DNA of 64,000 nt from Clostridia bacterium (GTDB lineage Bacteria > Bacillota > Clostridia > TANB77 > CAG-508): the NCBI GenBank assembly GCA_017409455.1, contig JAFQSS010000028.1:78104-142103 (forward strand), written 5' to 3'. The position numbers and the translations under genes were made by a program. Below are positions 1,923 to 58,209 of this stretch, piece after piece. The notes under the pieces were generated by a model that did no database searches, was not told where the DNA came from, and saw nothing but the letters and a program-made list of their open reading frames with translations. Position 1 is the stretch's first letter, and every line of letters begins with the position of its first letter.

Positions 1923-3320
1923 CTATTTTGTGATAATTTTTCCATTATCATCAAGAAAGCTTTCTTGTTCATTATTATAAACTCTTATTCCATCAGCTAA
2001 AAGTTCAATATTTGCATTAGTTATTTCAAGTGATAAATCAAATTTATCATCATAAATATCAGTTTTATTTGTAGAAAAGTCAATAGCTTGAACTATATTT
2101 TTCCCTTTTATAATTTGGATTAAATCATAATTATATTCAACTATCACATTTTCCTCTAAATCAATCATTCCAACCTTATCTTGTTCATTTGTAACAATAA
2201 AATATGTTTCATAAGCATGTTCTATGAATTTATAGTTCTGCTTTGTAAGCTTCTTTAGTTCAGTATTTACTATTGAATAATTACCAACATCATTTCTAAT
2301 AAAATATTTTGAATTAGAAGTTTTGTTTATAATTGTATTAAAAGGAATATTTATTTCATTTCCTTGCTGGTTAAAAACTTTTTGTTCCCCATTTTTCACG
2401 CTATATAAATAAATTCCATTTATAGTTAACTCAGAATATTCTGTTTGTAATATTTGCACTCCTTTTAAATTAATAGCACCATATTTATCTGTTTTTTCAA
2501 CTATAAACATTTCCATATCTGTATTATAATTTATTGTTTGATATTCAGTATTAATTATTTTACTGTTATTTACAAATACACCATATTGACCATTTTTAGC
2601 AGCAATCAAATAAATATTATCACTTTTGATTTCTGATAATCTTGTTATCTGATTATATTCTTCCTCTAAAACTTGGATTCCTTCATAATCATAATATCCA
2701 TATCTATATCCTTGTTCTGTAGTAACTTTAACAATATAACCTGCTTTTTGGTATTGATTTTCCTCTGTATAATATTCATCTAATTGGATTTCATCATATT
2801 TATTTTTTATTATTGTATTTCCATTACCATGTAGAATTCCATATTTTCCATCTTTTTTTGATAATAGTGGTCCTTGTTGATAACCTAAACTTGAAATTTC
2901 CTCATATTTTGCATTTGTTATTGTTTCTCCATTAATACTTAAAAGTCCGTATTCTCCTTCTTTTTCATATATCAATATATCTTTTTCATATATTCCATTA
3001 GAAATTTCAATTGGTTGTACATTATCGTATTTTTGAAAAATTTCTTGATTTTTATTATTTACAATTTTTTGTTCATCTTTTAATTGGCAAACAAATACTG
3101 CTTTATGCGGATTCACAATAATTATTTTCTCATATTGTGGCTCTATTATAATATTTTCATCTTGATCTATTATACCAAATTTCCCATTTTTTTCTATAGT
3201 TGAATAATTTATTGATATATCTTCACTTTCTATCTTTCCCTTATTAGGAAAATATATTGATAAAAATAAACTTATTAAAATAACTATAAAGATTAAAATA
3301 ACACTTATTTTTTTCGACAT
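1923..3320 (-). CDS. membrane-anchored WG/KWG-repeat protein
   Basis: N-terminal TM helix, then about 10 repeats of the type GKFGIID / EYGLLS / KYGILH / QYGVFV / KYGAINLKG. Confidence 0.6.
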   Translation of the reverse strand: MSKKISVILIFIVILISLFLSIYFPNKGKIESEDISINYSTIEKNGKFGIIDQDENIIIEPQYEKIIIVNPHKAVFVCQLKDEQKIVNNKNQEIFQKYDNVQPIEISNGIYEKDILIYEKEGEYGLLSINGETITNAKYEEISSLGYQQGPLLSKKDGKYGILHGNGNTIIKNKYDEIQLDEYYTEENQYQKAGYIVKVTTEQGYRYGYYDYEGIQVLEEEYNQITRLSEIKSDNIYLIAAKNGQYGVFVNNSKIINTEYQTINYNTDMEMFIVEKTDKYGAINLKGVQILQTEYSELTINGIYLYSVKNGEQKVFNQQGNEINIPFNTIINKTSNSKYFIRNDVGNYSIVNTELKKLTKQNYKFIEHAYETYFIVTNEQDKVGMIDLEENVIVEYNYDLIQIIKGKNIVQAIDFSTNKTDIYDDKFDLSLEITNANIELLADGIRVYNNEQESFLDDNGKIITK

Positions 3321-3397
3321 TTTTCTACCTCTTTCGATTTTGTTATTTTTATTTTACTATTTTCAAGCTATTTTTTCAATATTTTTTTGCATTTTCC

Positions 3398-3426
3398 TTG
3401 TTTTTTATTGAATATTATTGTATAAT
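3398..3426 (+). promoter_or_regulatory. sigmaA-type promoter for asnS
   Basis: TTGTTT-17 nt-TATAAT with TG at -15/-14, about 85 nt upstream of the asnS ATG. Confidence 0.4.
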
Positions 3427-3509
3427 CTTAACATAATATTTATAATGGTTAAAATTGGATTAAGCTAGTGTTTTAGCCTAATCCCACTACATTAGAAAGA
3501 AGGAATTTT

Positions 3510-4901
3510 ATGAAACATTTGACTATAAAAGATTTATTTAGAAACACATCTGAATATGCAAATAAAACTGTTACACTTGAAGGATGGGTTAAAACAGTAA
3601 GAGATTCAAAAACATTTGGATTTATTGAATTAAATGATGGTTCATTTTTCAAAAATGTTCAAATTGTTTTTACAGATAAATTAGCAAATTTTGATGAACT
3701 TGTAAAACTTACTATATGTTCTACAATCAAAGTTACTGGAACTTTAATTATTACAGAAAATGCTAAACAACCTTTTGAAATACAAGCAGATGAAGTTATT
3801 ATCGAAAGTTTAAGTCCAGCTGATTATCCACTTCAAAAGAAAAGACATTCTTTTGAATATTTACGTACTATTGCACATTTAAGACCTAGAACAAATACTT
3901 TTAATGCTGTATTTAGAATCAGAAGTGTTGCAGCATTTGCAATACACGAATATTTCCAATCAAATGGATATGTATATGTAAATACTCCAATTATCACTTG
4001 TGCAGATTGTGAAGGCTCTGCTGAAATGTTTAAATTAACAACTTTAAACACAGATACCCCACTTCCAACAAATGAAGATGGTACAACAAATTATTCTGAA
4101 GATTTATTTGGTAAAAAAGCTTTTATTACAGGCTCTGGACAATTACATGGAGAAACATATGCACAAGCTTTTGGAAAAATTTATACATTTGGCCCAACAT
4201 TAAGAAGTGAGAATTCAAACACAAAAACACATGCAAATGAGTTCTGGATGATAGAACCAGAAATATCTTTCTGTGATTTAAATGGTCTTATGGATGTTGA
4301 AGAAGATTGTTTAAAATATATAGTTAAAGCAGTTTTAGAAAGATGCCCTGAAGAAATGGAATTTTGTGATAAATTTATTGAAAATGGATTAATTGAAAAG
4401 TTAACTAAATTAATTAATTCAGATTTTGTTAGAATTGATCACAAAGATGTTATAGATATCTTGAAAAAAGCTGATAGACAATGGGAATTTCAACCTGATT
4501 ATGGTGAAGATTTAGCTAAAGAACATGAAAAATATATTACTGAATATTTTAATGGTCCTGTTTTCGTTAAAAACTGGCCAAAAGATATTAAATCTTATTA
4601 TATGAAAGTAAATCCTGATGGTAAAACTGTTGCTGCAGTTGACCTTGAAGTTCCGGGTGCTGGTGAAATTATGGGTGGCTCTCAAAGAGAAGAAGATTAT
4701 GATAAATTAGTTTCTCGTATGAAAGAAATGGGAATTGAAACAGACCCATTATATTGGTACTTAGATCTTCGTAAATATGGTACTGATATCCATTCAGGTT
4801 TTGGTCTTGGTTTTGAAAGATTACTTATGTATATTACTGGTATTGAAAATATAAGAGATGTTATTCCTTTCCCAAGAACACCTAATAATTGTGATTTTTA
4901 A
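3510..4901 (+). CDS. asnS: asparagine--tRNA ligase
   Basis: 463 aa. N-terminal OB anticodon-binding domain, class IIb core motifs (FRIRS, GEIMGGSQRE, GFGLGFERL) and AsnRS length. Confidence 0.9.
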   Translation: MKHLTIKDLFRNTSEYANKTVTLEGWVKTVRDSKTFGFIELNDGSFFKNVQIVFTDKLANFDELVKLTICSTIKVTGTLIITENAKQPFEIQADEVIIESLSPADYPLQKKRHSFEYLRTIAHLRPRTNTFNAVFRIRSVAAFAIHEYFQSNGYVYVNTPIITCADCEGSAEMFKLTTLNTDTPLPTNEDGTTNYSEDLFGKKAFITGSGQLHGETYAQAFGKIYTFGPTLRSENSNTKTHANEFWMIEPEISFCDLNGLMDVEEDCLKYIVKAVLERCPEEMEFCDKFIENGLIEKLTKLINSDFVRIDHKDVIDILKKADRQWEFQPDYGEDLAKEHEKYITEYFNGPVFVKNWPKDIKSYYMKVNPDGKTVAAVDLEVPGAGEIMGGSQREEDYDKLVSRMKEMGIETDPLYWYLDLRKYGTDIHSGFGLGFERLLMYITGIENIRDVIPFPRTPNNCDF

Positions 4902-4902
4902 T

Positions 4903-4972
4903 TTGGGGACGGTCCTCTTTTTCGCGAAATGGGGGACGGTCCTTTTTTTCGCGAATTTTGGGACAGTCCTTT
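4903..4972. repeat. REP-like palindromic repeat cluster (3 units), left flank of the RAYT-like gene
   Basis: TTGGGGACGGTCCTCTTTTTCGCGAAATGGGGGACGGTCCTTTTTTTCGCGAATTTTGGGACAGTCCTTT. Each unit contains a GGACNGTCC palindrome. Confidence 0.8.
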
Positions 4973-4979
4973 AAATAAA

Positions 4980-5762
4980 TTATGTTTGTTGCCATGATTT
5001 TTCTATAACTCTTCTCCCTAATCTAGTTATTCTAGCAACTTGTGTAACATTTATTCCTTTTATTTTTGATAATTCTTTTAAATTTATTTCAAGATCTTTT
5101 TTGTTTTGACTCTTAAAAAAATTAGGCACATCTTCTATATTATTAATATTAAATTTTCTCATTATGTATTTTATTAATTGTTCATCCACTAGCTTTTCTA
5201 TCATTTCATATTCTATGTAAGAATTTAATTCTTCATTTTCATTCTTTTTTAGAGTATAATCAATAAAATTTTCTTGCCTGTTTTCTAAATAATACAATAA
5301 TACCTTTTTATTTATTATATTTGCTTTTCCCATGTATTCCTTATAACTACTCCATTCATAATTTTGAGTTAATGCTATTCCAGCTTTTTCAGGATTTCTG
5401 TGTACATATCTACACAAATCAATAAAATATGTTTCATTTTCTACGCATTTACTTTTATATCTATTTTGCATTAATGGGCCTTTTCTTTTATACTTTTTAT
5501 TAAAGTAATGAACATATCTTACCAATAAACTTTTCATCGCTGTAGCTAGGAAAACATCTTCACATTTTATCACTAAATGAATATGATTTACCATTAAGCA
5601 ATACGCATATACTATGTAATTAAATTCATTTTTGGTTACTGAAATTTGTTTTAGAAAAAATTTTCTATCTTTATCATCATAAAAAATTGTTTGATCATCT
5701 ATCCCTTTTAAAATAATATGATAGACTTTAGAATTACTATAGAATCTTGATGTTCTTGGCAT
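4980..5762 (-). CDS. REP-associated tyrosine transposase-like protein (IS200/IS605 Y1 HUH fold plus C-terminal HTH)
   Basis: HUH motif NHIHLVI and catalytic-Tyr context RYVHRNP. The C-terminal tail NVTQVARITRLGRRVIEK looks like an HTH. Flanked by inverted REP clusters. Confidence 0.75.
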   Translation of the reverse strand: MPRTSRFYSNSKVYHIILKGIDDQTIFYDDKDRKFFLKQISVTKNEFNYIVYAYCLMVNHIHLVIKCEDVFLATAMKSLLVRYVHYFNKKYKRKGPLMQNRYKSKCVENETYFIDLCRYVHRNPEKAGIALTQNYEWSSYKEYMGKANIINKKVLLYYLENRQENFIDYTLKKNENEELNSYIEYEMIEKLVDEQLIKYIMRKFNINNIEDVPNFFKSQNKKDLEINLKELSKIKGINVTQVARITRLGRRVIEKSWQQT

Positions 5763-36237: not shown

Positions 36238-37494
36238 TTACCTTTCTAAATCCCATTCTTTTTCTCTTTCCTCATGTTTTATCTGTCTTTCTGGATCTAT
36301 AAAAGTATTTGTTTCTTCTTGAAAATCTCTAATTAAATTATCTTCTTCAGCAATATCAAATTTTCTAACAATCCATTTTATAAACTTCTTAACTGTTTTT
36401 TCAAAAGTATTTATAATCTTTCTTAAATACCTATTTTCACCTAATAAGTCATCATATTTTCTGTTAAATTCCCTTTTTAGTTCATATTCTTTATTACTAA
36501 AATTATCTTGCATTTTTTGCAATTCTGCATTATATTCCTTTTCAAGCTTTTTAGATTTTCTCTCAAGTTCTTCTTCCATTTCAGCACATTTACTTTTCAA
36601 TTTATATTGTTCTAATAGTATATTTTCTCTTTCTTTTTCAAATTTTTCTGCAGAGTCTATTATATTTACTTGCTTTTCCAATTTTTCGTGTAATTGTTTA
36701 TTATCATAATATAAAGTTTCAATAAGTTTATCTTTTGGCTTTATAATTTCATTTAAAATTTTTTCATCTCTACCAATCATAACTTTCTTTATATCTTTTA
36801 ATTCAGGAACTTCTGGTAATTCTAATTTTATATTTTTTAGTGTTTCTTTTGTTTTCTCAAAATTAGTTATATTTTTAAACTCTTGAATTGTATAATGCTC
36901 CCTGTTTGTTTCTTCTTTTGGTAATCCTCTCTCAAGTTCAAATCCTTTTTGTGTTACATACTCATAATAAGCATTTTGCAATTTCCTATAACTATCTCTT
37001 CCTTCCCAAAAATCTCTGCAACATATTTTATCAATATCATTTCCATCTTTATCTTGTGTATGAATTGTAGGAATATATATTAAATGCATATGTGGTGTAC
37101 CTTCATCTAAATGAACAACTGCTGATATTATATTTTCTTCTCCAAGATTTTTGTATTTACTTATAAATTTATAACTTTCCTCAAAATATCTTTTTGTTTC
37201 TTCTATACCAATTTTATTAAAAAACTCTTTATCTGATGTAAATATCATTTCACACATTATAATACTGTTGCTTCTGATTTGCCCTTGTAAATTATTCTCT
37301 TTTTTTATTCTGTCAAATTCTTTTATATAACTTAGCTTATTTTTCTTTAAGTAATAATTCAAATGTGTTCTTTCTACATCTATTTCTTTGTTTGAATGAT
37401 TTTTTGATTTTCTATTATTATGAACACATATTCCTTGTGCTTGCACTCTTGTTAATTTCTCATTTCTTACTATGGCATAACTCATAGTCTTCAC
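36238..37494 (-). CDS. mob: MobV-family (Pre/Mob) relaxase
   Basis: MSYAIVRNEKLT N-terminus and the HLDEGTPHMHLIYIP metal-binding motif (HxDE..PHxH), followed by a long coiled-coil tail. Confidence 0.85.
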   Translation of the reverse strand: MKTMSYAIVRNEKLTRVQAQGICVHNNRKSKNHSNKEIDVERTHLNYYLKKNKLSYIKEFDRIKKENNLQGQIRSNSIIMCEMIFTSDKEFFNKIGIEETKRYFEESYKFISKYKNLGEENIISAVVHLDEGTPHMHLIYIPTIHTQDKDGNDIDKICCRDFWEGRDSYRKLQNAYYEYVTQKGFELERGLPKEETNREHYTIQEFKNITNFEKTKETLKNIKLELPEVPELKDIKKVMIGRDEKILNEIIKPKDKLIETLYYDNKQLHEKLEKQVNIIDSAEKFEKERENILLEQYKLKSKCAEMEEELERKSKKLEKEYNAELQKMQDNFSNKEYELKREFNRKYDDLLGENRYLRKIINTFEKTVKKFIKWIVRKFDIAEEDNLIRDFQEETNTFIDPERQIKHEEREKEWDLER

Positions 37495-37528
37495 CGTCCT
37501 TTCTAATATAATAAATTTATTTGTCTAA

Positions 37529-37566
37529 CACACTAGACAAGTTTTTTCAAAACTTATCTGTGTGGC
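37529..37566. promoter_or_regulatory. candidate oriT (imperfect inverted repeat ending in GTGTG) upstream of the MobV gene
   Basis: CACACTAGACAAGTTTT-TTC-AAAACTTATCTGTGTG lies 35-70 nt upstream of the relaxase start. Confidence 0.4.
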
Positions 37567-37701
37567 AGGGATACCCCACACCCCAAACCTAAAAAAGCTA
37601 CTGCATTTTTAGGTTATTAAATAAAAAATGCTTGTCGCAATTTTTATTTAATTGAGCCAAAAAATAAATTTTTTGACTCACTCACTTTAGCTATTCCAAA
37701 G

Positions 37702-38088
37702 TAGAAACCAGAGGGAGAGAGCTAAAGTGAATTAGGCGTAATAATCCCTTATTTTAAAAAAAGGAATTATTACACCTATTTAAGCAGAAACCGTCGGTCG
37801 TTCGCCTCATTTCATAGGTAGTCTAGTAAGTAGCATTGCTACTATAATTGCTGATGCTTATAAGCACCTTTGTTCATACTTGTCCAAACTTTTTGCAATT
37901 ATAAATCCTCAGCCAAGTTTTGCCACCGAATACTCTTTTTTTTATTGTGAGTCTGTGTTCAAAAATCTCACTCACGCACTTCATACTAATAGACTGTTAG
38001 CATTTATACGAATGAACTTTATAGCATCGGCTCATTACACCTATCACTTTTTAAGAGTTTGAGGCATTATCTCTTGCATAAGAAAAAA
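37702..38088 (-). ncRNA. conserved structured element, copy A (RNA or single-strand DNA function; homologous to 55389-55765)
   Basis: The reverse complement aligns by eye with 55389-55765 over its whole length, with blocks such as AGTGCGTGAGTGAGATTTTT, CTACTTACTAGACTACCTATGAAA and GATTATTACGCCTAATT. Several hairpins are conserved. Confidence 0.5.
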
Positions 38089-38229
38089 CACACTTGCAAC
38101 TTTAAATTGCAAATGTGCTTATCTTACTAATATTTAATTTTGTTTGCCCTCACGTTTTATTTTCAGCCAAATAAAACTGCAAGGTAATAAATTATGCCTA
38201 CCCAAAAGAGTAGACACAAAATTTCTTAT

Positions 38230-38508
38230 TTATTTAATTACCAATCCTAATCTAACAACAGGATTTTTTGTACTTAAGAAAACTCCCTTAATTTCAATGC
38301 TTTTAGGAATAAGTTGTCCTTTATTTTTACCGTTCTGGAGTGTTACATCCGTGTGTACTGTGCTTTTACTTATACAAAACTTTTTAGCCGCCCCCCTTAC
38401 AGTATCTTTAGAATCTATTATATATTGTGCTAAATTTATAACACGTTCTTCTATTATCTTTTGCCCTGCTGCATTTGCAGGTATATTATGTTTTACTCTT
38501 TCATTCAT
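38230..38508 (-). pseudogene. spoIIID: spoIIID 5' segment (about 50 codons with the complete HTH) fused in frame to 42 element-derived codons
   Basis: ...KIIEERVINLAQYIIDSKDTVRGAAKKFCISKSTVH matches the SpoIIID N-terminus IKERTIKIGKYIVETKKTVRVIAKEFGVSKSTVH. Similarity ends at the TGTACTG core (38354-38360). Confidence 0.9.
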
Positions 38509-38577: not shown

Positions 38578-39228
38578 CTATATTTCATGGATTACATCAA
38601 TATAACTAGTTACAATTTTAGCCCCTTGTTTTATCAAATTATTTGTTCCTGTTGAAGTTTCTTTGTTTATATCTCCAGGAACAGCAAAAACTTCCCTTCC
38701 CTGTTCTAGCGCAAAATCCGCAGTTATAAGAGAGCCACTTTTTTCACTTGCTTCTACAACCAGAACACCTTTAGATAATCCACTTATAATTCTATTCCTT
38801 TGTGGAAAATTCAATTTATTAGCTGATGTTCCTATTGGATATTCAGATAAAATACATCCTCCAGATTTTATGATACGTCTTGCAAGTTGTATATTTTCTT
38901 TGGGATATATTTTATCTAGACCACTCCCCAATACTGCAATTGTCTTTCCTATACATTTTTCATGTAAAGTTCCCAAATGTGCAGCACTATCTACTCCTAA
39001 AGCCATTCCACTTATTATATTAATCCCAAGCTGACTTAGCTCTGTTGCAATTTGCTCAGCAACCTTTCTACCATACCCGGTTGCTTTTCTAGCCCCAACA
39101 ATTGCAACTCCTTTTTGTTTCAATATTTTCTTATCTCCTAAAACATATAGTTTCAATGGAGCATCATATATATTTCTTAATTGTTTTGGATATTCTTCAC
39201 TATCTATGCAAATCTCTTCGACCTTCAT
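38578..39228 (-). CDS. dprA: DNA processing protein DprA (Rossmann core only)
   Basis: AIVGARKATGYG, SGMALGVDSAAH, FPQRNRIISGLS and SGSLITADFALEQGREVFAVPG. Confidence 0.85.
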   Translation of the reverse strand: MKVEEICIDSEEYPKQLRNIYDAPLKLYVLGDKKILKQKGVAIVGARKATGYGRKVAEQIATELSQLGINIISGMALGVDSAAHLGTLHEKCIGKTIAVLGSGLDKIYPKENIQLARRIIKSGGCILSEYPIGTSANKLNFPQRNRIISGLSKGVLVVEASEKSGSLITADFALEQGREVFAVPGDINKETSTGTNNLIKQGAKIVTSYIDVIHEI

Positions 39229-51331: not shown

Positions 51332-51859
51332 TTGGACAGTAAAAATATAACAATTGGAGGGGTTTTTATGTATTCTGTTAAACAGAAAAAAGAAGTAATT
51401 AATTATATTTTAGAAAATGATGCTTCGCTTTACCAAGCAGAAAAAAAGTTTAATGTTAGTAGAGAAACTATTAGAATTTGGATTGCTAGATATCAAAATG
51501 GTGGTGATAAAAAGTTAAAAAATTCTAACAAAAAAACTAAATATACTGGTCAATTTAAAGTTGATGTTGTAGAATATATGCATGAACATCACTTTTCACA
51601 CAAAAAAACTAGTATAAAATTTATGATTTCTGATTACTCAGTTAAAGAATGGGATTTAATTTATAGACACGAAAGTAAAGATGTTCTCTTGAAAGGGAAT
51701 TATATGAGTATGTATAAAAAGAAAAAACATAAACTTGAAGATAAATCTAAAGAGGAACTAATGGAAGAAGTTGAATATCTTAGAATGGAAAATGCTTACT
51801 TAAAAAAATTAAGAGCCTTAGTTCAAAAAGAAACAAAGCCAAACAATGGCAAAAAGTAG
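51332..51859 (+). CDS. IS3 transposase OrfA (HTH)
   Basis: YSVKQKKEVINYILENDASLYQAEKKFNVSRETIRIWIARYQ and a leucine zipper. The likely start is MYSVK at 51368, after a GGAGGGG SD sequence. Slippery CAAAAAG at 51850-51856. Confidence 0.85.
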   Translation: MDSKNITIGGVFMYSVKQKKEVINYILENDASLYQAEKKFNVSRETIRIWIARYQNGGDKKLKNSNKKTKYTGQFKVDVVEYMHEHHFSHKKTSIKFMISDYSVKEWDLIYRHESKDVLLKGNYMSMYKKKKHKLEDKSKEELMEEVEYLRMENAYLKKLRALVQKETKPNNGKK

Positions 51860-51909
51860 CTGTCATTGCTGAACTAAGGCGTGAATTTAAATTAGAGGCT
51901 TTATTAAAA

Positions 51910-52704
51910 TTGGCTCAAATACCTAGAAGCACATTTTATTACCATCTAAGCAAACTAAATAAAATCGATAAATATGCTGATGTTAAAGAACAAATTCAGT
52001 CTATTTATCACGAAAATAAAGGTAGATATGGATATAGAAGAATGACTGCAGAACTTCATAATAGAGGTTATTACGTTAATCACAAAACTGTTTTAAAACT
52101 TATGAAAGCCCTTGGATTACAATGTTTTATAAGAGCTAAAAAATATCGTTCTTATAAGGGGACTGTGGGTAAAATTTGTGATAATCTATTAAATCGTGAT
52201 TTTAAAGCAGATGCTCCTAATCAAAAATGGGTTACTGATGTTACTGAATTTAAAGTAAATGGTAGAAAATTATATCTTTCACCTATTGTTGATTTGTTTA
52301 ATGGAGAAGTTATAAGTTACAATTTATCTAGACACCCTGTTTTTAAGCAAGTCACAGATATGCTTTCAAAAGCTTTCGAAAAAATATCTGATACTACAAA
52401 TCTAATTCTTCACTCTGATCAAGGCTGGCAATATCAAATGAAAGAATACCAAGAATTATTGAAAGCAAAAGGAATTAGACAAAGTATGTCTAGAAAAGGA
52501 AACTGTTTAGATAATTCACTTGCAGAGAACTTCTTTGGGCTCTTAAAGTCCGAATTATATTATACAAATGATTATAATAATGTTGATGATTTAGAAAAAG
52601 ATATTAAAAATTACATAGATTATTATAATAATAAAAGAATTAAATTAAAATTAAATGGAATGAGTCCTGTTCAATATAGAACTCATTCATGTGTAGCTGC
52701 TTAA
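51910..52704 (+). CDS. IS3 transposase OrfB (DDE/rve integrase core), normally expressed as an OrfAB -1 frameshift fusion
   Basis: YGYRRMTAEL, WVTDVTEF, HSDQGWQY and a C-terminal ...YNNKRIKLKLNGMSPVQYR. The frame is open back to about 51850 in the -1 frame relative to orfA. Confidence 0.85.
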   Translation: MAQIPRSTFYYHLSKLNKIDKYADVKEQIQSIYHENKGRYGYRRMTAELHNRGYYVNHKTVLKLMKALGLQCFIRAKKYRSYKGTVGKICDNLLNRDFKADAPNQKWVTDVTEFKVNGRKLYLSPIVDLFNGEVISYNLSRHPVFKQVTDMLSKAFEKISDTTNLILHSDQGWQYQMKEYQELLKAKGIRQSMSRKGNCLDNSLAENFFGLLKSELYYTNDYNNVDDLEKDIKNYIDYYNNKRIKLKLNGMSPVQYRTHSCVAA

Positions 52705-53404: not shown

Positions 53405-53838
53405 TGTTCCTCCGTTTTAGTACATTTTTATTAATGACTTCGTTTTTAGCATATCATATTTTTGTTTTGTATTCAAGATAAAGTTTTAGCAACTTGTCTC
53501 ACTCATCAAAATGTTTAAGAACAAAAAAACTCTATTATTACCATTGTAAAAGATGGTAATATGTCTGGAGTTGAACCCAGCGACATCGCAATCAAAATAA
53601 TGATGTCTACTGGAATCTATGACCTGGTAATTCTGAATAAAATTAAAAATGAGATGGAAGTGATTTTTTAATCACAAGAGACTTCCTTAATGTGTACAAG
53701 TATTAAGGAGGTCTTTTTATTATGTAGAGAATTTTTCAACCAAAGGTTGACACAAAAAAATCAGGTTTCAATAGCACTATTTGATATTGTTTTATATTTG
53801 AATTATATTTTTTAAAAATTTAATATTTATATTTTTAT

Positions 53839-53855
53839 TGTCCAAAGTGGAACTC
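53839..53855 (-). other. degenerate second copy of the tRNA-Leu 3' terminus
   Basis: The rc GAGTTCCACTTTGGACA compares with GAGTCCCACTTTGGGCA of the fragment at 54009-54061. Confidence 0.35.
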
Positions 53856-54008
53856 GGCAAGCCGCGTCGTAAAAAATGTCCACCGGACATTTTTTGTCTG
53901 CGTTTTGGCACTGCCTTAACCGTTCCAAAACTTGCCCACTCCTTTTCGAGCCCCACTCTTCAAAATCAAAAAAATAAAAAACACAGAAAAATCTGTGTTT
54001 TTTATTTT

Positions 54009-54061
54009 TGGTGCCCAAAGTGGGACTCGAACCCACATGGTTTCCCGCACGATTTTGAGTC
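54009..54061 (-). pseudogene. orphan 3' portion of tRNA-Leu(CAA): anticodon loop to CCA, 5' half absent (att-site-like remnant)
   Basis: The rc reads GACTCAAAATC GTGCGGGAAACCATGT GGGTTCGAGTCCCAC TTTGGGC A CCA: anticodon loop with CAA, long variable arm, T-arm and acceptor 3' strand. Sequence upstream of it is not tRNA-like. Confidence 0.7.
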
Positions 54062-54316
54062 TTTTAAGCTATTTTATACTTATTTATTTTTAGTATTAAA
54101 TATTACTTTTTAAGAAGCTCAAAACTATGGATTTTCTAACTCTCACCTTCGTTTTTATTACTTGCTCAAGTATAACATACGTTTTATTACTTTTGCAAGT
54201 TTTTTGAAAAAATGTTAGATGTTTTGTTAGATATGTTAGATGTAATAGATAGTTTATTATTGATGATTGAAAAATAAGACAAAATGTTGTATTATGTCGA
54301 TGGAGGTATCTATTTT

Positions 54317-55348
54317 ATGACCATTATCGATTTAATAACTGAAACTATTAGCTATAAATATTTGTTTTATTTAATTTGCATAGCTTTATTGTTACGTTAT
54401 ATTGTAACTGATTTCATTTTAGCTAATAAAAAATCTAAAATAGAAAATAGAAACGTTAACACTATAGACGGATGGATGGTAATTCCACATCTTACAGTTC
54501 TAATTATTTCTATAATACTAATAGTTAAAGTAAAAACTATTTATAATTTTATAGCTATATTATGCATTCCATTATATATATCTGTTTTAATTATATATCT
54601 TATTAAAATAATAGAAAATGTAAGGCAAGTAAAAGATAGAGAATTTAATGAATTAGAAATTAATTCATTTTTATCTTTTTCTCATTTTGCACTTTTAGTA
54701 TTTACTGAAAAAAGCCAAGAATTTTTTAAAGAATTTTTACAAATGTTAGAAAGTACTCATCCAACAATTTTTCAATGTTTTGCCATAATAGTATTGTTAT
54801 TAAAAACTTTTTTTGTAAGTTTCTTTACTTTATATAGCATACTTATTATTATAAAAAACTTTAAAATAATTATGAATAAGATTTTGACTAAATTGAATAT
54901 AAACTTTAATTTATTTAGTAAAATAAGTAATTTCTTTTTGAATAATGATTGGTATTTTTACGATTTTGTTTTACTGAAAAAGTATAAAAATATAAAAATA
55001 CTTATTCCTATATTATTCATTGTTGATTTAACTGTACTAATTATATGTGATATATTTACTTTTCTAATGTACTTCATACGATATCCTATATTAACTTTAA
55101 TGGTACTATTTAAATATGTATGTAAGTTTATAAAAAACATTGAAAATTTAAACATATCTTTATTTACTTTTAAATGGTTTAGAATTATGATTATATTTTC
55201 TATTACACTTACTTATATAATGTTAAAATTGTTCAATATTAACATACTACCAAATATAATGGATATATTTGAATTAATTTCTACCGTTATATTAATTCCT
55301 TTAATATTTGAACAAATATTTAATATTACACAAAAAAAGACTAATTAA
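54317..55348 (+). CDS. hypothetical polytopic membrane protein (very AT-rich)
   Basis: ORF track gives 54284..55348. MTIIDL at 54317 follows a GGAGG SD sequence. About 9 hydrophobic segments and no family motif. Confidence 0.45.
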   Translation: MTIIDLITETISYKYLFYLICIALLLRYIVTDFILANKKSKIENRNVNTIDGWMVIPHLTVLIISIILIVKVKTIYNFIAILCIPLYISVLIIYLIKIIENVRQVKDREFNELEINSFLSFSHFALLVFTEKSQEFFKEFLQMLESTHPTIFQCFAIIVLLLKTFFVSFFTLYSILIIIKNFKIIMNKILTKLNINFNLFSKISNFFLNNDWYFYDFVLLKKYKNIKILIPILFIVDLTVLIICDIFTFLMYFIRYPILTLMVLFKYVCKFIKNIENLNISLFTFKWFRIMIIFSITLTYIMLKLFNINILPNIMDIFELISTVILIPLIFEQIFNITQKKTN

Positions 55349-55388
55349 TATTTATACAAACCTAAGACTGTCTATTAAAAATAGATAG

Positions 55389-55765
55389 TCTTTTTATTAT
55401 GCAGAGAAATGCAGTACCTCTATAAAAGTACTAGGTTTGGCAAGCCGATGCTATAAAGTTTGCCCGTATTCGTATAAACGGTCTATTTATACAAAGTGCG
55501 TGAGTGAGATTTTTCAACCATAGACTCACAATAATAAAAGAGTTTTTGGGAGGCAAAGCTTGGATGTGGATTTGCAATTGTAAAAAGTGTGGACAAGTAT
55601 GCACATTGATAATTCATCAGCAATTGTAGTAGTTCTTCTACTTACTAGACTACCTATGAAACGAAGCGACTGACTGACGGTTTCTTATTTTTTAGGTGTA
55701 ATAATCTCTTTTAAGCATTGGGATTATTACGCCTAATTATCTTCGCTCTCTCCCTCTGGTTTCTA
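55389..55765 (+). ncRNA. conserved structured element, copy B (homologous to the rc of 37702-38088)
   Basis: See copy A. Lies directly after a terminator hairpin and upstream of the tnpV/mobC/relaxase module, in the same sense as those genes. Confidence 0.5.
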
Positions 55766-55793
55766 TAATAAAAATGAAAGGAATTGATTTAAT

Positions 55794-56146
55794 ATGAAAA
55801 TAGAATATACAAAAGTTGGTGATTACTATTTACTTAATTTATTGCACCAGAAAATATGAAAAATTTTAAAATAGGAAAATACGGAAAATTAAGATTAAGA
55901 TATTTAAAAGAACATAAAAAAGCTGAATACACTATCTTGTTAATGGATAATAAATTACAAAAACATTTAATGGAAATCGATAAAATTGCTAATGAAAGAT
56001 TTGAATTATTGATGAAACAATATGCATCAAAAGAAAATATTACTGAAGAATTAAAATCAAAAGACCAACTAAAATGGGTTGGATTAATGAACAATATAAA
56101 GCACTCTGTTGAAGAAATTATATTAAAAGAATTGATATACGTTTAG
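55794..56146 (+). pseudogene. tnpV: TnpV-like transposon protein gene with a 1-nt frameshift near codon 17
   Basis: ATG at 55794 gives MKIEYTKVGDYYLLNLLHQKI*. Shifting by one frame gives ...PENMKNFKIGKYGKLRLRYLKEHKKAEY..., continuous with ORF 55856..56146. This pattern matches my recollection of the TnpV family. Confidence 0.5.
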
Positions 56147-56157
56147 GAGGAATTGTT

Positions 56158-56484
56158 ATGTTAGAAATAAAATCATTTTACAAAGAATATGAAGATATGT
56201 TTGAAGAATTTTTAGATGATGTTAAAAGAATTTTAAGAAAGAAAAATGAAAAATATATAAAATTACAAGAAAAATATCACAAAATTTTAAATGAAAATGA
56301 AAATCTAGTTTGGGTTTTAGAAGGTCAAACTGAAGGCAGAAATTTATCAAATAAAGAGTGTGTTGCACTCGCAAAATTAGTACAAATTTATTACGAGATG
56401 CAATCAATAGAAGAAAAAGAAATATTCTTTTTAGGTGGTAAAGAAGCTTACTTTTTCTTCAAAAAAATTGGAATTTTAAGATAA
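56158..56484 (+). CDS. hypothetical protein (108 aa)
   Basis: ORF with a GGAGG SD sequence; no motif recognised. Confidence 0.4.
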   Translation: MLEIKSFYKEYEDMFEEFLDDVKRILRKKNEKYIKLQEKYHKILNENENLVWVLEGQTEGRNLSNKECVALAKLVQIYYEMQSIEEKEIFFLGGKEAYFFFKKIGILR

Positions 56485-56493
56485 AAATATAAA

Positions 56494-56560
56494 ATTGTAG
56501 CAGGAGTAACTAGAGCTTTTTATGTATTAGCAAGCACTGAATTGTTACTCCCGCCACAAT
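56494..56560. promoter_or_regulatory. candidate oriT inverted repeat upstream of mobC
   Basis: ATTGTAGCAGGAGTAAC...GTTACTCCCGCCACAAT (14 of 16 positions complementary), followed by the small hairpin GGGACTTTAGTCCC. Confidence 0.4.
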
Positions 56561-56615
56561 TCTGGATGGGACTTTAGTCCCAAACCCTACTATAAAAGAA
56601 ATGGAGGTAATTTTT

Positions 56616-56963
56616 ATGAGAAATAGAACAATAAAAAAACAAATTTGGTTAAATGAAACAGAGGATAATTTATTAAAAGAGAAATGTAAAAAAGCAAATA
56701 TATCTGAAGCAGAATTTTTTAGAAATTGTATAAATGGATTTGAAGTAAGAGAAAAACCTGATGAGAATTTTTATTATATTTTAAGAGATTTAAGAGGCAT
56801 TGCAACAAACATAAATCAATTAGCTAGAAATGCAAATAGATATGGCTATTATTCTGATGCAGAAAAATATAAAAAAGATTTTCAAAAGGTATCAGATTTT
56901 ATTGTTGATATACAGGAAATGTATTTAAATCCTGTTAGAAAGGAATTCTATGGCTACTACTAA
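56616..56963 (+). CDS. mobC: relaxosome accessory protein MobC
   Basis: ORF track gives 56601..56963. The likely start is MRNRTIKKQIW. LRGIATNINQLARNANRYG is the MobC signature region. Confidence 0.75.
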   Translation: MRNRTIKKQIWLNETEDNLLKEKCKKANISEAEFFRNCINGFEVREKPDENFYYILRDLRGIATNINQLARNANRYGYYSDAEKYKKDFQKVSDFIVDIQEMYLNPVRKEFYGYY

Positions 56964-58209
56964 GATATGGAAAATAAAAAATAGATTTGATAATGTTATT
57001 GATTATGTTTCAAATAAAGATAAAACAGATAATAAAAAATATGTATCAGGATTAAATTGTTTGCCAGAAACAGCTTTTAAAGAAATGTCTATTGTAAAAA
57101 AACAATATAATAAAACAAATGGTATTTTAGGATTTCATGCTTATCAATCTTTCAAAGGTTATGAAGTAACAAGTAATGAAGCTCACGAAATTGGAATAAG
57201 ACTTGCTGAAGAATTATGGGGCAATAGATTTCAAGTTATAGTTGCAACACATACTAATACAAAAAATGTTCATAATCACTTTTTTATAAACTCTGTTTCT
57301 TTTGTAGATGGAAAGGATAATAAAGTAAATTATGCAATTATGAGAAGAACATCAGATAATATCTGCAAAGAATATGAACTGCAAACCTTAGAAGAAAAAA
57401 GCTTTTATAAAAACATTTCTAATAGATATGCTAGAAGTAGTAAATATTTAGAGTGTATTCGTGTAGATATAGATTATGCTATATCTCAAGCAAGTATTTA
57501 TAATGATTTTACGAAGATATTAACTAAAATGGGTTATGAATTAAATCATGAACATAACAAAATGAGTATTAGGAAACCACCTTATAAAAGATATACCAGA
57601 GTAGAAAAAACTTTTGGAGAAGAATATTCAAGAGAAAGTATTTTATTTAGAATAAAGCACACACAAGCATTTAAAGTACCTTTTCTAGAATGTCACACTT
57701 TAACAGGAAGATATAAAAGAAAAAACAAAACTTCTATAAGAAATAAGCTAAAAGCTAAAGGCTTACGAGCATTATATTATTACTATTGTTATTTACTAAA
57801 GGTTTTTCCAAAGCAAAAATATCCCCCTAAATACTCAAAAGCTATGAAAGAAGAAATTAAGAAAATGGATAACTATTCAAATTCTGCAAGATTTTTAGTA
57901 AAATATAATATAACTACACTTACTGAAATTAAAGAATATAAATCTTCAGCTATAAATAAAATAGTTGAATTAAAAGGATTAAGAGAAAATTTATGGAGAA
58001 AGCACAAAAGAATTAAAACTGATGAAGAAGGACAATTTATTTGCTCCGAAATTCAAAAATTAGCCACTAAAATAGATGAGCTAAACAAAGATATTAAACT
58101 ATGTAATTTTATTGAAGATAACACTTTAAAGATGAAGAATAGTATTAAAGAAATCAGTGAAGAAGAACATAATATTAAAGTAAAAAATAAAAATAGATAT
58201 GAAAGATAA
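56950..58209 (+). CDS. relaxase/mobilization nuclease (MobA/VirD2-type)
   Basis: ILGFHAYQSF and ATHTNTKNVHNHFFINSVS (histidine triad), with a coiled-coil C-terminus. Overlaps the mobC end. Confidence 0.8.
   Translation: MATTKIWKIKNRFDNVIDYVSNKDKTDNKKYVSGLNCLPETAFKEMSIVKKQYNKTNGILGFHAYQSFKGYEVTSNEAHEIGIRLAEELWGNRFQVIVATHTNTKNVHNHFFINSVSFVDGKDNKVNYAIMRRTSDNICKEYELQTLEEKSFYKNISNRYARSSKYLECIRVDIDYAISQASIYNDFTKILTKMGYELNHEHNKMSIRKPPYKRYTRVEKTFGEEYSRESILFRIKHTQAFKVPFLECHTLTGRYKRKNKTSIRNKLKAKGLRALYYYYCYLLKVFPKQKYPPKYSKAMKEEIKKMDNYSNSARFLVKYNITTLTEIKEYKSSAINKIVELKGLRENLWRKHKRIKTDEEGQFICSEIQKLATKIDELNKDIKLCNFIEDNTLKMKNSIKEISEEEHNIKVKNKNRYER

Follow-up and report, generated by a model that had tools for sequence, protein, structure and literature searches.

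What could a non-coding element of some 390 nt be doing in front of two unrelated relaxase modules of the same bacterial chromosome? The question is posed by a 64,000-nt stretch of contig JAFQSS010000028.1 from a Clostridia bacterium (assembly GCA_017409455.1), called the window below, in which such an element is present twice, as copy A on the minus strand and as copy B on the plus strand (Table 1). The window is low-GC chromosomal DNA (ca. 27% GC), and ligA, folD, dprA and a tRNA synthetase gene surround the insertions. We find that this element forms the non-coding core of a mobilization cassette, which is made up of a terminator hairpin, the 390-nt core, an origin of transfer (oriT) and a relaxase gene and which circulates, among the matches listed in our searches, in integrated mobilizable elements of uncultured gut Clostridia. 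In our judgement the likeliest single identity of the core, proposed tentatively and by analogy with pMV158-type plasmids, is that of a single-strand origin (sso) whose sequence type is new.

The initial annotation of the window held that the two copies can be aligned along their full length, and this was borne out by blastn: the reverse complement of positions 37702-38087 is 77.8% identical to positions 55391-55765 over 388 columns (E 1.1e-77). All four identical blocks quoted in the annotation were seen in a MAFFT alignment. A 20-mer taken from the longest of them is present exactly twice in the window, against an expectation of 0.00 in shuffled sequences. The flanks of the two copies are unrelated to each other on either side. 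The boundaries proposed at first (37702-38088 and 55389-55765) had to be adjusted when the copies were matched to the family profile described below, since copy A runs ca. 20 nt further in the 3' direction, while copy B is without the last closing segment and abuts the ribosome-binding site of tnpV; by sequence reading, its 3' end lies 30 nt ahead of the tnpV start. No conserved open reading frame (ORF) is present in the core. Antisense ORFs of 57-60 aa overlie both copies and were rejected as coding sequences, since their translations are unrelated between copies A and B.

Relatives of the element were collected in two scans, and all family counts given here refer to the matches listed from them. 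The first scan, with an 18-mer against a collection holding one genome per species, retrieved at least 118 loci; almost all of the records are labelled as metagenome-assembled genomes (MAGs) of uncultured Clostridia, Clostridium or Clostridiales, several come from gut samples, and several MAGs supplied two loci each. The second scan, with another conserved block against metagenomes, yielded at least 120 further loci, mostly from the human gut. Altogether, the family comprises at least 240 loci. A profile built from the set of the first scan recovered at least 191 full-length copies, 169 of which are distinct. The exact 18-mer of the first scan is kept in 82 of the 99 full copies recovered via the block used in the second, and the conservation is therefore not an artefact of locus retrieval. 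Contigs encoding the proteins of the window belonged to the same organism only and added no diversity. Secondary nhmmer matches within the loci were discarded, since they correspond to the palindromic long hairpin on the other strand and not to extra copies.

Pairwise comparison of 61 loci that have a full mobV gene showed higher conservation of the core than of the first 1100 nt of mobV in 85% of the pairs; the median identities are 83% and 64%, respectively. The element is the best-conserved part of the relaxase cassette in uncultured Clostridia. Insertions of 50-90 nt were noted in loops of the core in some family members (L044:1787-2273, L046:1342-1826, L079:6562-7013 and L059:3256-3717; L numbers denote loci). 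They lie after profile position 138 and near positions 183, 61 and 296, and some appear by eye to be capable of forming a hairpin; L044 and L046 have their insertion in common.

We next turn to the fold of the core. A consensus computed by RNAalifold has an energy of -121 to -123 kcal/mol for the strand that reads in the sense of the relaxase gene and of -104 for the antisense strand. In a 99-sequence alignment it comprises 98 pairs in 17 helices, with 95.7% of the cells paired. Thirty-six of the pairs are changed on both sides, compared to 16.2 +/- 2.1 in shuffled alignments (none of 500 shuffles reached the observed value) and to 19-27 when the partners were slid along the alignment. Counted by cells, there are 217 double changes against 26-65 in the slid controls, which preserve the relatedness of the sequences. 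Both kinds of controls overstate the support, because the aligned sequences are related to each other and were also the basis of the structure prediction; the slid controls and specific covarying cases are persuasive all the same. The helix that closes the CCGATGCTATAAAG loop alternates between GAUGAGC/GUUCAUU and GGCAAGC/GUUUGCC. In helix 3, three pairs occur as AU in 155 copies and GC in 14, as UA in 155 and CG in 14, and as GC in 123, GU in 30 and AU in 15. The helix-5 stem shows UA/CG and AU/UG/UA alternation, and the hairpin ahead of the near-invariant block CTACTTACTAGACTACCTATGAAA is found as GUAGC/GCUAC, GUAGU/ACUAC and GUAAC/GUUAC variants. Helix 17, the long 3' hairpin, has 18 pairs, nine of which are changed on both sides, with UG/UA/CG alternation. 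At the long-range pair 172-230, 83 copies have AU, 76 GU and 10 GC. One hairpin tolerates insertions of up to ca. 70 nt.

The initial annotation had pointed out hairpins whose pairing is kept on one strand only, in the example given through G-U wobbles, and the observation holds for the family as a whole. Across 169 copies, the predicted pairs include 1870 G-U cells and 124 A-C cells, a ratio of 15 to 1, and the fold therefore exists on the relaxase-sense strand only. The consensus is more stable than shuffles with either DNA (z = -5.68) or RNA (z = -4.44) energy parameters; single-sequence folds of the two window copies carried no strand information (z from -0.75 to -2.66).

Several parts of the core deserve description. 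At its 5' end, at least five different complementary stems surround the fixed loop CTCT(A/T)TAAAAG across the family, and because the stems vary around a fixed loop, this is a single-strand hairpin and not a palindromic operator. The only well-conserved motif resembling a -10 promoter element, TGCTATAAAG, is found in 148 of the 169 copies and is located in the loop of a covarying helix. The sequence TAGAC within the near-invariant block is present in every copy, and its complement GTCTA, in the helix-5 loop, in 168 of 169. As judged from this complementarity, the two segments may form a pseudoknot; neither of them varies. A truncated copy found at two loci (L181:254-512 and L216:298-556) spans profile positions 67 to 326 between unrelated flanks. 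Position 67 is the base of helix 4, which is also where a transcript would be predicted to start if TGCTATAAAG were a promoter; the truncation at this point may be a coincidence, or the sub-region may be a separate unit.

The genomic surroundings of the core are highly regular. Among 196 listed loci with enough downstream sequence, 177 have a Mob_Pre (MobV) gene on the same strand within 2.5 kb, five have the TnpV-DUF6664-MobC-relaxase operon found behind copy B, and 14 have neither. At the listed loci that have a relaxase, the core is always 5' of the relaxase operon and co-oriented with it, as had been noticed for both copies in the window: copy A precedes a Mob_Pre gene, and copy B precedes genes for TnpV, DUF6664, NikA/MobC and a relaxase. 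The linkage to two unrelated relaxase families claimed from these two copies thus extends to the family, and the core is not the 5' untranslated region (UTR) of a single gene family, given that mobV lies downstream in one arrangement and tnpV in the other. Since the core accompanies two unrelated relaxase families, we argue that its role is relaxase-independent and related to transfer.

In the commonest layout, a gene for a SpoIIID-like helix-turn-helix (HTH) protein is followed by tnpV, a hairpin with a T-run, the core, three A/T-tract hairpins, oriT and mobV. The terminator-like hairpin seen ahead of each window copy had been described as unrelated. It is not incidental: in 27 of the 28 clusters into which the upstream sequences fall, a strong hairpin and its 5-7 T residues end 6-9 nt ahead of where conservation of the core begins. 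Many of these clusters may share one upstream gene family, so that not all of them are independent contexts. Conserved family sequence begins just after the T-run, and because the terminator-like hairpin comes so close to the core, there is no room for a promoter between them. Indeed, no conserved promoter was detected in this interval by scans of the two window copies and by reading of the upstream sequences of the family. On the other side, the loci cease to be homologous directly behind the mobV stop codon (for example, L034:1500-4700 and window positions 36238-38120). The few proteins examined next to the L034 cassette resemble, by reading only, products of ordinary chromosomal genes. A serine recombinase gene is near 20 listed loci and others show none within the stretch examined; the cassette often has no recognisable recombinase in its vicinity.

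Where does the core lie with respect to the site at which transfer starts? Inverted repeats and a nick core of the form GTGxG/T, both characteristic of the MobV (pMV158) family, are found 5' of the Mob_Pre gene of copy A and make up a predicted oriT. The sequence GTCTAGTGTG/TTAGAC, at 37538-37523 and 29 nt 5' of mobV, mirrors GTATAGTGTG/TTATAC of pMV158, and the predicted nick falls between 37529 and 37528 of the relaxase-sense strand. The pMV158 oriT sequence used for this comparison matched a 5540-bp S. pneumoniae plasmid (L121) at 100%; the plus strand of L121 holds the nick-bearing sequence (3570-3609), mobM (3732-5216) and the ssoA CS-6 motif (5292). A nick motif GTCTAGT(G/A)TG/TTAGAC recurs on the sense strand between the core and mobV in MobV loci, with AGTGTGTTA present in 50 of 81 MobV loci and AGTATGTTA in many other loci examined. 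By analogy with pMV158, the sense strand, i.e., the strand on which the core folds, would be the transferred one. The possibility that the core itself is the oriT was rejected, since the pMV158-like nick hairpin lies outside the core. For the copy B module, an 18-nt inverted repeat 5' of mobC is, as judged from its sequence, the likely oriT. Two of the three A/T-tract hairpins between core A and oriT have similar loops, TTGCGAnAAGCA and TGCGAATAGCA; these hairpins are absent from the copy B arrangement.

Table 1. Features of the two mobilization cassettes and of the third-copy remnant in the window
Feature	Position	Strand	Basis or remark
Copy A core, full length	37681..38073	-	Profile positions 3-393; nhmmer with family profile, E 4.4e-115
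Copy B core	55402..55769	+	Profile positions 3-377; nhmmer with family profile, E 4e-102
Terminator-like hairpin and T-run (T0) directly 5' of copy A	38086..38120	-	Terminator scan
Terminator-like hairpin and T-run (T0) directly 5' of copy B	55364..55392	+	Terminator scan
5' hairpin, copy A	38037..38067	-	Conserved loop CTCTTAAAAAG, variable stem
Loop CCGATGCTATAAAG, extended -10-like	38017..38030	-	Closed by covarying 7-bp helix; copy B 55445-55458
Near-invariant block CTACTTACTAGACTACCTATGAAA	37810..37833	-	Copy B 55638-55661; exact 18-mer kept in 82 of 99 full metagenome copies
Long 3' hairpin	37733..37778	-	17-19 bp with T-G wobbles; copy B 55693-55735
Conserved pyrimidine-rich tail GCTCTCTCCCTCTGGTTTCTA	37702..37722	-	Mostly unpaired; copy B 55745-55765
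Three A-tract/T-tract hairpins between core A and oriT	37588..37678	-	Sequence reading; MobV arrangement only
Predicted MobV oriT, copy A	37523..37585	-	Inverted repeat GGGGTGTGGGGTATCCCTGCCACAC, then GTCTAGTGTG/TTAGAC
MobV (Mob_Pre) relaxase gene 3' of copy A	36238..37494	-	Pfam PF01076, E 1.6e-45
Copy B operon: tnpV (frameshifted), DUF6664, NikA/MobC, MobA/VirD2-type relaxase	55796..58209	+	PF14198, PF20369, PF21983/PF05713, PF03432
Candidate oriT of copy B module	56493..56561	+	18-nt inverted repeat I3 5' of mobC, 89% complementary
Remnant of third copy, heavily deleted	53711..53765	+	Hairpin ahead at ca. 53677-53715

These features suggest how the core, read as an sso, would work. The relaxase would nick oriT, and the relaxase-sense strand would be transferred in the 5' to 3' direction. 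Being located a few hundred bases 5' of the nick, the core would enter the recipient almost last and, as single-stranded DNA (ssDNA), would fold into many hairpins. The fold would recruit a host enzyme for priming (RNA polymerase or DnaG primase), which would make a short primer, and host polymerases would then copy the whole transferred strand into the duplex form that would be required for integration or maintenance. As between RNA and ssDNA, the anatomy leans towards ssDNA. The 5' hairpin is located upstream of the sole conserved -10-like motif, and a transcript started there would therefore exclude it. We infer that it is as DNA, and not as RNA, that the strand folds, and that the fold serves in priming.

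The core has the structural traits of the sso class: it is non-coding, folds as a single strand, is orientation-specific and lies on the predicted transferred strand. The ssoU and ssoA regions of pMV158/pUB110-type plasmids are likewise non-coding, several hundred nt long, multi-hairpin and orientation-specific, and they are located on the strand nicked by MobV. In pMV158, the 460-nt gap between tetL and oriT holds ssoU (PMC5737340), and the layout there is that of the element, i.e., an upstream gene terminator, a structured region, oriT and mobV (PMC5737340, PMC4595007). The sso regions of pMV158 flank the mob cassette and matter for transfer (PMC4595007). Single-strand origins adjoining a relaxase gene are also present, or predicted, in integrated elements of Firmicutes, namely the functional, ssoT-like sso1 of ICEBs1 (PMC4595007) and a putative ssoA next to mobSag of IMESag-rpsI (PMC5090054). 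These two are 3' of the relaxase gene and were recognised through their similarity to plasmid sso regions, whereas the core is 5' of oriT and resembles neither. It also differs from ssoU and ssoA in being longer, with long-range helices and near-invariant loops, in residing in chromosomally integrated elements of uncultured Clostridia and not on plasmids, and in being found with a MobA-type relaxase as well. In size the core is of the order of the 168-340 nt of known sso regions (PMC4595007); it is larger and far more constrained in sequence than a typical sso and, among the matches listed, is confined so far to uncultured gut Clostridia.

Database searches placed the element outside known families, as the initial annotation had supposed it might be. 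The whole window, searched against Rfam 15 at gathering thresholds, contained two tRNAs only. With permissive settings, both copies gave weak hairpin-level matches to Rfam 15 models far below threshold, none of them credible. A likeness to group II introns and T-boxes seen by eye (GAGCC...GUUC, GGUGGCA) was rejected when the Rfam models gave no match. No blastn match was found in 72,556 PLSDB plasmids with copy B (E<=1e-5) or the family consensus (E<=1), nor in 50,697 phage records with copy B, and a 20-mer scan of viral contigs was negative. Conserved structured non-coding elements with similar genomic settings are also found among the Rfam candidate motifs from mobile elements, of which the Bacillus-plasmid and ssNA-helicase motifs have been suggested to act as single-stranded DNA.

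A number of observations weigh against an sso. The core has no sequence similarity to any known sso compared: the family profile gave no nhmmer match to pMV158 ssoU (3110-3570) or ssoA, and the ssoA CS-6 motif TAGCG[TA] is present in only 12 of 169 copies, RSB not having been searched as a motif. Known sso regions rely largely on their structure, with changes in sequence being tolerated (PMC4595007), while the near-invariant loops and single-stranded stretches of the core and its conservation above that of mobV are closer to the pattern of a large functional RNA; near-invariance also extends to many G-U positions, as is common for RNA. The copy B core abuts the tnpV start, ca. 750 nt from the presumed oriT, an arrangement that suits a leader RNA at least as well. 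The A/T-tract hairpins of the MobV arrangement could be a separate functional site and possibly the real sso. Finally, no candidate priming signal is strictly conserved. A -35/-10-like pair, GTGGCA-17-T(A/G)TAAT, was considered as an ssDNA promoter and set aside, since roughly half of the copies have G in place of its key A. The primase of C. difficile prefers d(CCC) (PMC5204125), and initiation at the CCC of the core tail was considered as well; it is a weak lead only, since CCC is found in just 111 of the 169 copies.

Some of these features would find their place if the core belonged to a new class of functional nucleic acids, large and ornate, that are dedicated to conjugative mobilization, which we regard as possible and yet unlikely. 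The conservation above that of the relaxase gene, the near-invariant loops and the possible pseudoknot would then be due to a specific tertiary structure by which a conserved host machine is bound. Such a molecule could be an RNA of ca. 330-390 nt that aids or governs the relaxase as an antiterminator, a sensor or a relaxosome co-factor, or it could be a folded-ssDNA machine that establishes integrase-less relaxase cassettes in new genomes.

A cis-acting leader RNA of the relaxase operon, be it a processive antiterminator of the Tn916 canT or pLS20 conAn2 kind or a riboswitch-like regulator, is the main competitor of the sso, and we hold it to be rather unlikely. The folded RNA would act on the transcribing polymerase or on the downstream message to control the relaxase, and the upstream terminator would insulate the cassette from host transcription. 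Size and setting match: canT is a cis-acting, orientation-specific element of 341-452 nt in a Firmicutes conjugative transposon that works with insulating terminators (PMC11658703), and conAn2 is contained in a 383-bp intergenic region at the start of the conjugation operon (PMC8191782). They share with the core a length of 340-450 nt, orientation specificity, complex predicted folds, insulating terminators and a location 5' of DNA-processing genes in Gram-positive mobile elements. The constant position of the core, 5' of relaxase operons and in their orientation, with copy B ending shortly before tnpV, would be as expected of a leader; so would the high conservation, the near-invariant G-U pairs and the hairpins of variable length with insertions of 50-90 nt, which are typical of structured RNAs, and the consensus fold obtained with RNA parameters. 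The extended -10-like motif TGCTATAAAG could direct a start ca. 7 nt further 3', at the base of helix 4 as inferred from the helix map. However, two covarying hairpins upstream of and around this motif, the sole one of its kind, would be left out of a transcript started there, and we have downgraded an internal promoter with an RNA beginning at helix 4 for this reason. Read-in from outside would be blocked by the terminator directly 5' of the core, and no conserved promoter precedes the 5' hairpins. The comparison systems differ on this very point, since the promoter of canT and conAn2 lies upstream of them and the terminators that they override follow, whereas here the terminator is immediately 5'. 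For an antiterminator in particular, the interval from the core to mobV had no flagged sense-strand terminator at the three loci scanned, the long 3' hairpin of the core itself in L006 being the sole flagged feature on this strand, although consensus scans may miss weak or unusual signals. The ConAn1 domain, named as Pfam pXO2-34, PF17362 (PMC8191782), is absent from the neighbouring proteins scanned (TnpV, the SpoIIID-like HTH protein, DUF6664, MobC, the relaxases and the serine recombinase). No similarity to plasmid sequences, and none to canT or conAn2, was detected; for canT the comparison was made via PLSDB plasmids only, Tn916 itself not having been compared.

It is improbable, in our view, that the core is a gene for a trans-acting or co-factor RNA of mobilization. 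The precedent is the sgm-sRNA of SGI1, which is encoded between a mobilization gene and oriT and without which transfer fails (PMC9299015). The island is a Gram-negative one whose mobilization protein is of the tyrosine-recombinase type; the RNA is small, is processed from an mRNA 3' end and is unrelated to the element in sequence. The conserved, single-stranded C/U-rich tail of the core, CUCUCCCUCU, might pair with purine-rich ribosome-binding sites, the flanking hairpins could block transcription from both sides, and the 14 of 196 listed loci without an adjacent relaxase would be accommodated. Yet no consistent promoter or terminator was found, the copy B core and tnpV are not separated, the tail lies past the sole terminator-like hairpin, no complementarity to a target was found, and the strict co-orientation with relaxase genes is not required of such an RNA.

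We give equally little credence to a folded ssDNA site with a role other than priming, such as a recombination or integration substrate of integrase-less cassettes (as with integron attC and the CTX phage attP), a relaxosome accessory site or a transfer-termination site. That the fold is on the predicted transferred strand and that some cassettes, e.g., in L034, have no recognisable recombinase nearby speak for it, as do the limits of homology (on one side right after the mobV stop codon, on the other after the T-run) and the MAGs with two loci. Against it, neither a pattern of target sites nor terminal repeats nor empty sites could be identified, a serine recombinase is encoded near 20 of the loci, nothing recognisable as a known recombinase site was seen, and the core is internal in the common HTH-tnpV-core-mobV arrangement. 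Very improbable is ordinary duplex DNA (a promoter, operators or a UTR) whose pairing results from palindromic protein sites and shared ancestry: the sequences are indeed closely related, so that shuffles overstate the support, and inverted repeats do flank the -10-like motif, but the excess of G-U over A-C cells is meaningless in a duplex and is not accounted for by cruciforms or operators, variable stems with conserved loops are the opposite of what operators show, and the doubly changed cells far exceed those of the slid controls, with long-range helices (pair 172-230) covarying as well.

The initial annotation had also mentioned a truncated third relic. The segment contains a 21-nt match (53711-53731, E 0.003), which is weak alone and was undetected by the family profile at E<=1e-3. 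The adjoining sequence, 53517-53720, is 91% identical to the sequence directly 5' of 5'-truncated copies at four metagenome loci (L185, L233, L225 and L151), which span profile positions ca. 79-376 or 79-295. Because its flank matches the flanks of these truncated copies, the segment is a deleted remnant at the equivalent site and not a chance match.

The neighbourhoods of the window copies have peculiarities of their own. Behind copy B, the ATG of tnpV (55796-56146) at 55796 opens a 21-codon frame (MKIEYTKVGDYYLLNLLHQKI, followed by a stop), and the Pfam TnpV match starts at 55856 in another frame. An identical gene call (96 aa) is present in two other assemblies of this organism (L001 and L002), so that the frameshift is probably real and not a sequencing error. 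Next to copy A there is a DprA homologue (38578-39228; 216 aa, DNA_processg_A domain only) and, after it, a gene for a SpoIIID-like HTH protein (38230-38508) that belongs to the cassette family. A remnant at ca. 38130-38160 resembles the sequence 5' of T0 in other loci (…CGTGAGGGCAAACAAAATTAA), which suggests that the upstream gene, probably tnpV, was deleted from copy A.

Between the third-copy remnant and copy B, two 3' fragments of tRNA genes lie on the minus strand along with a run of GTTAGAT repeats (53840-54070 and 54191-54288; weak Rfam tRNA match at 54012-54069). L185 has a segment 86% identical to the repeat segment, in the opposite order relative to the remnant flank, and in L091 GTTAGAT repeats are found directly 5' of the upstream hairpin. 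The copy B element may have its attachment site or its arm sites in the tRNA fragments and the repeats. A 354-aa ORF (54284-55348) between the repeats and copy B is an apparent insertion relative to L091 and has no Pfam match even at E<=0.05. A pair of IS3-family transposase genes (HTH and rve; 51332-52704) is located ca. 1 kb from the remnant and the copy B island.

Few vehicles of gene transfer in gut bacteria are as numerous as integrated mobilizable elements, whose non-coding functional sites are almost unannotated. The element described here is common, with its at least 240 loci, yet invisible to Rfam and to plasmid databases. On either reading, as an sso or as a cis-acting RNA located beside transfer genes, its kind would be a known one, and it has no detectable relationship to described members of either. 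Should the element be an RNA, it would found a new class of large structured RNAs with a link to the control of conjugation, beside canT and conAn2, whose structures are still undefined, and the family would offer an unusually rich alignment for structure determination. If the core is, as we favour, an sso, it would represent a new sso type, would allow the transferred strand and active mobilization cassettes to be recognised by sequence in metagenomes, and could serve as a part for vectors in currently intractable organisms.

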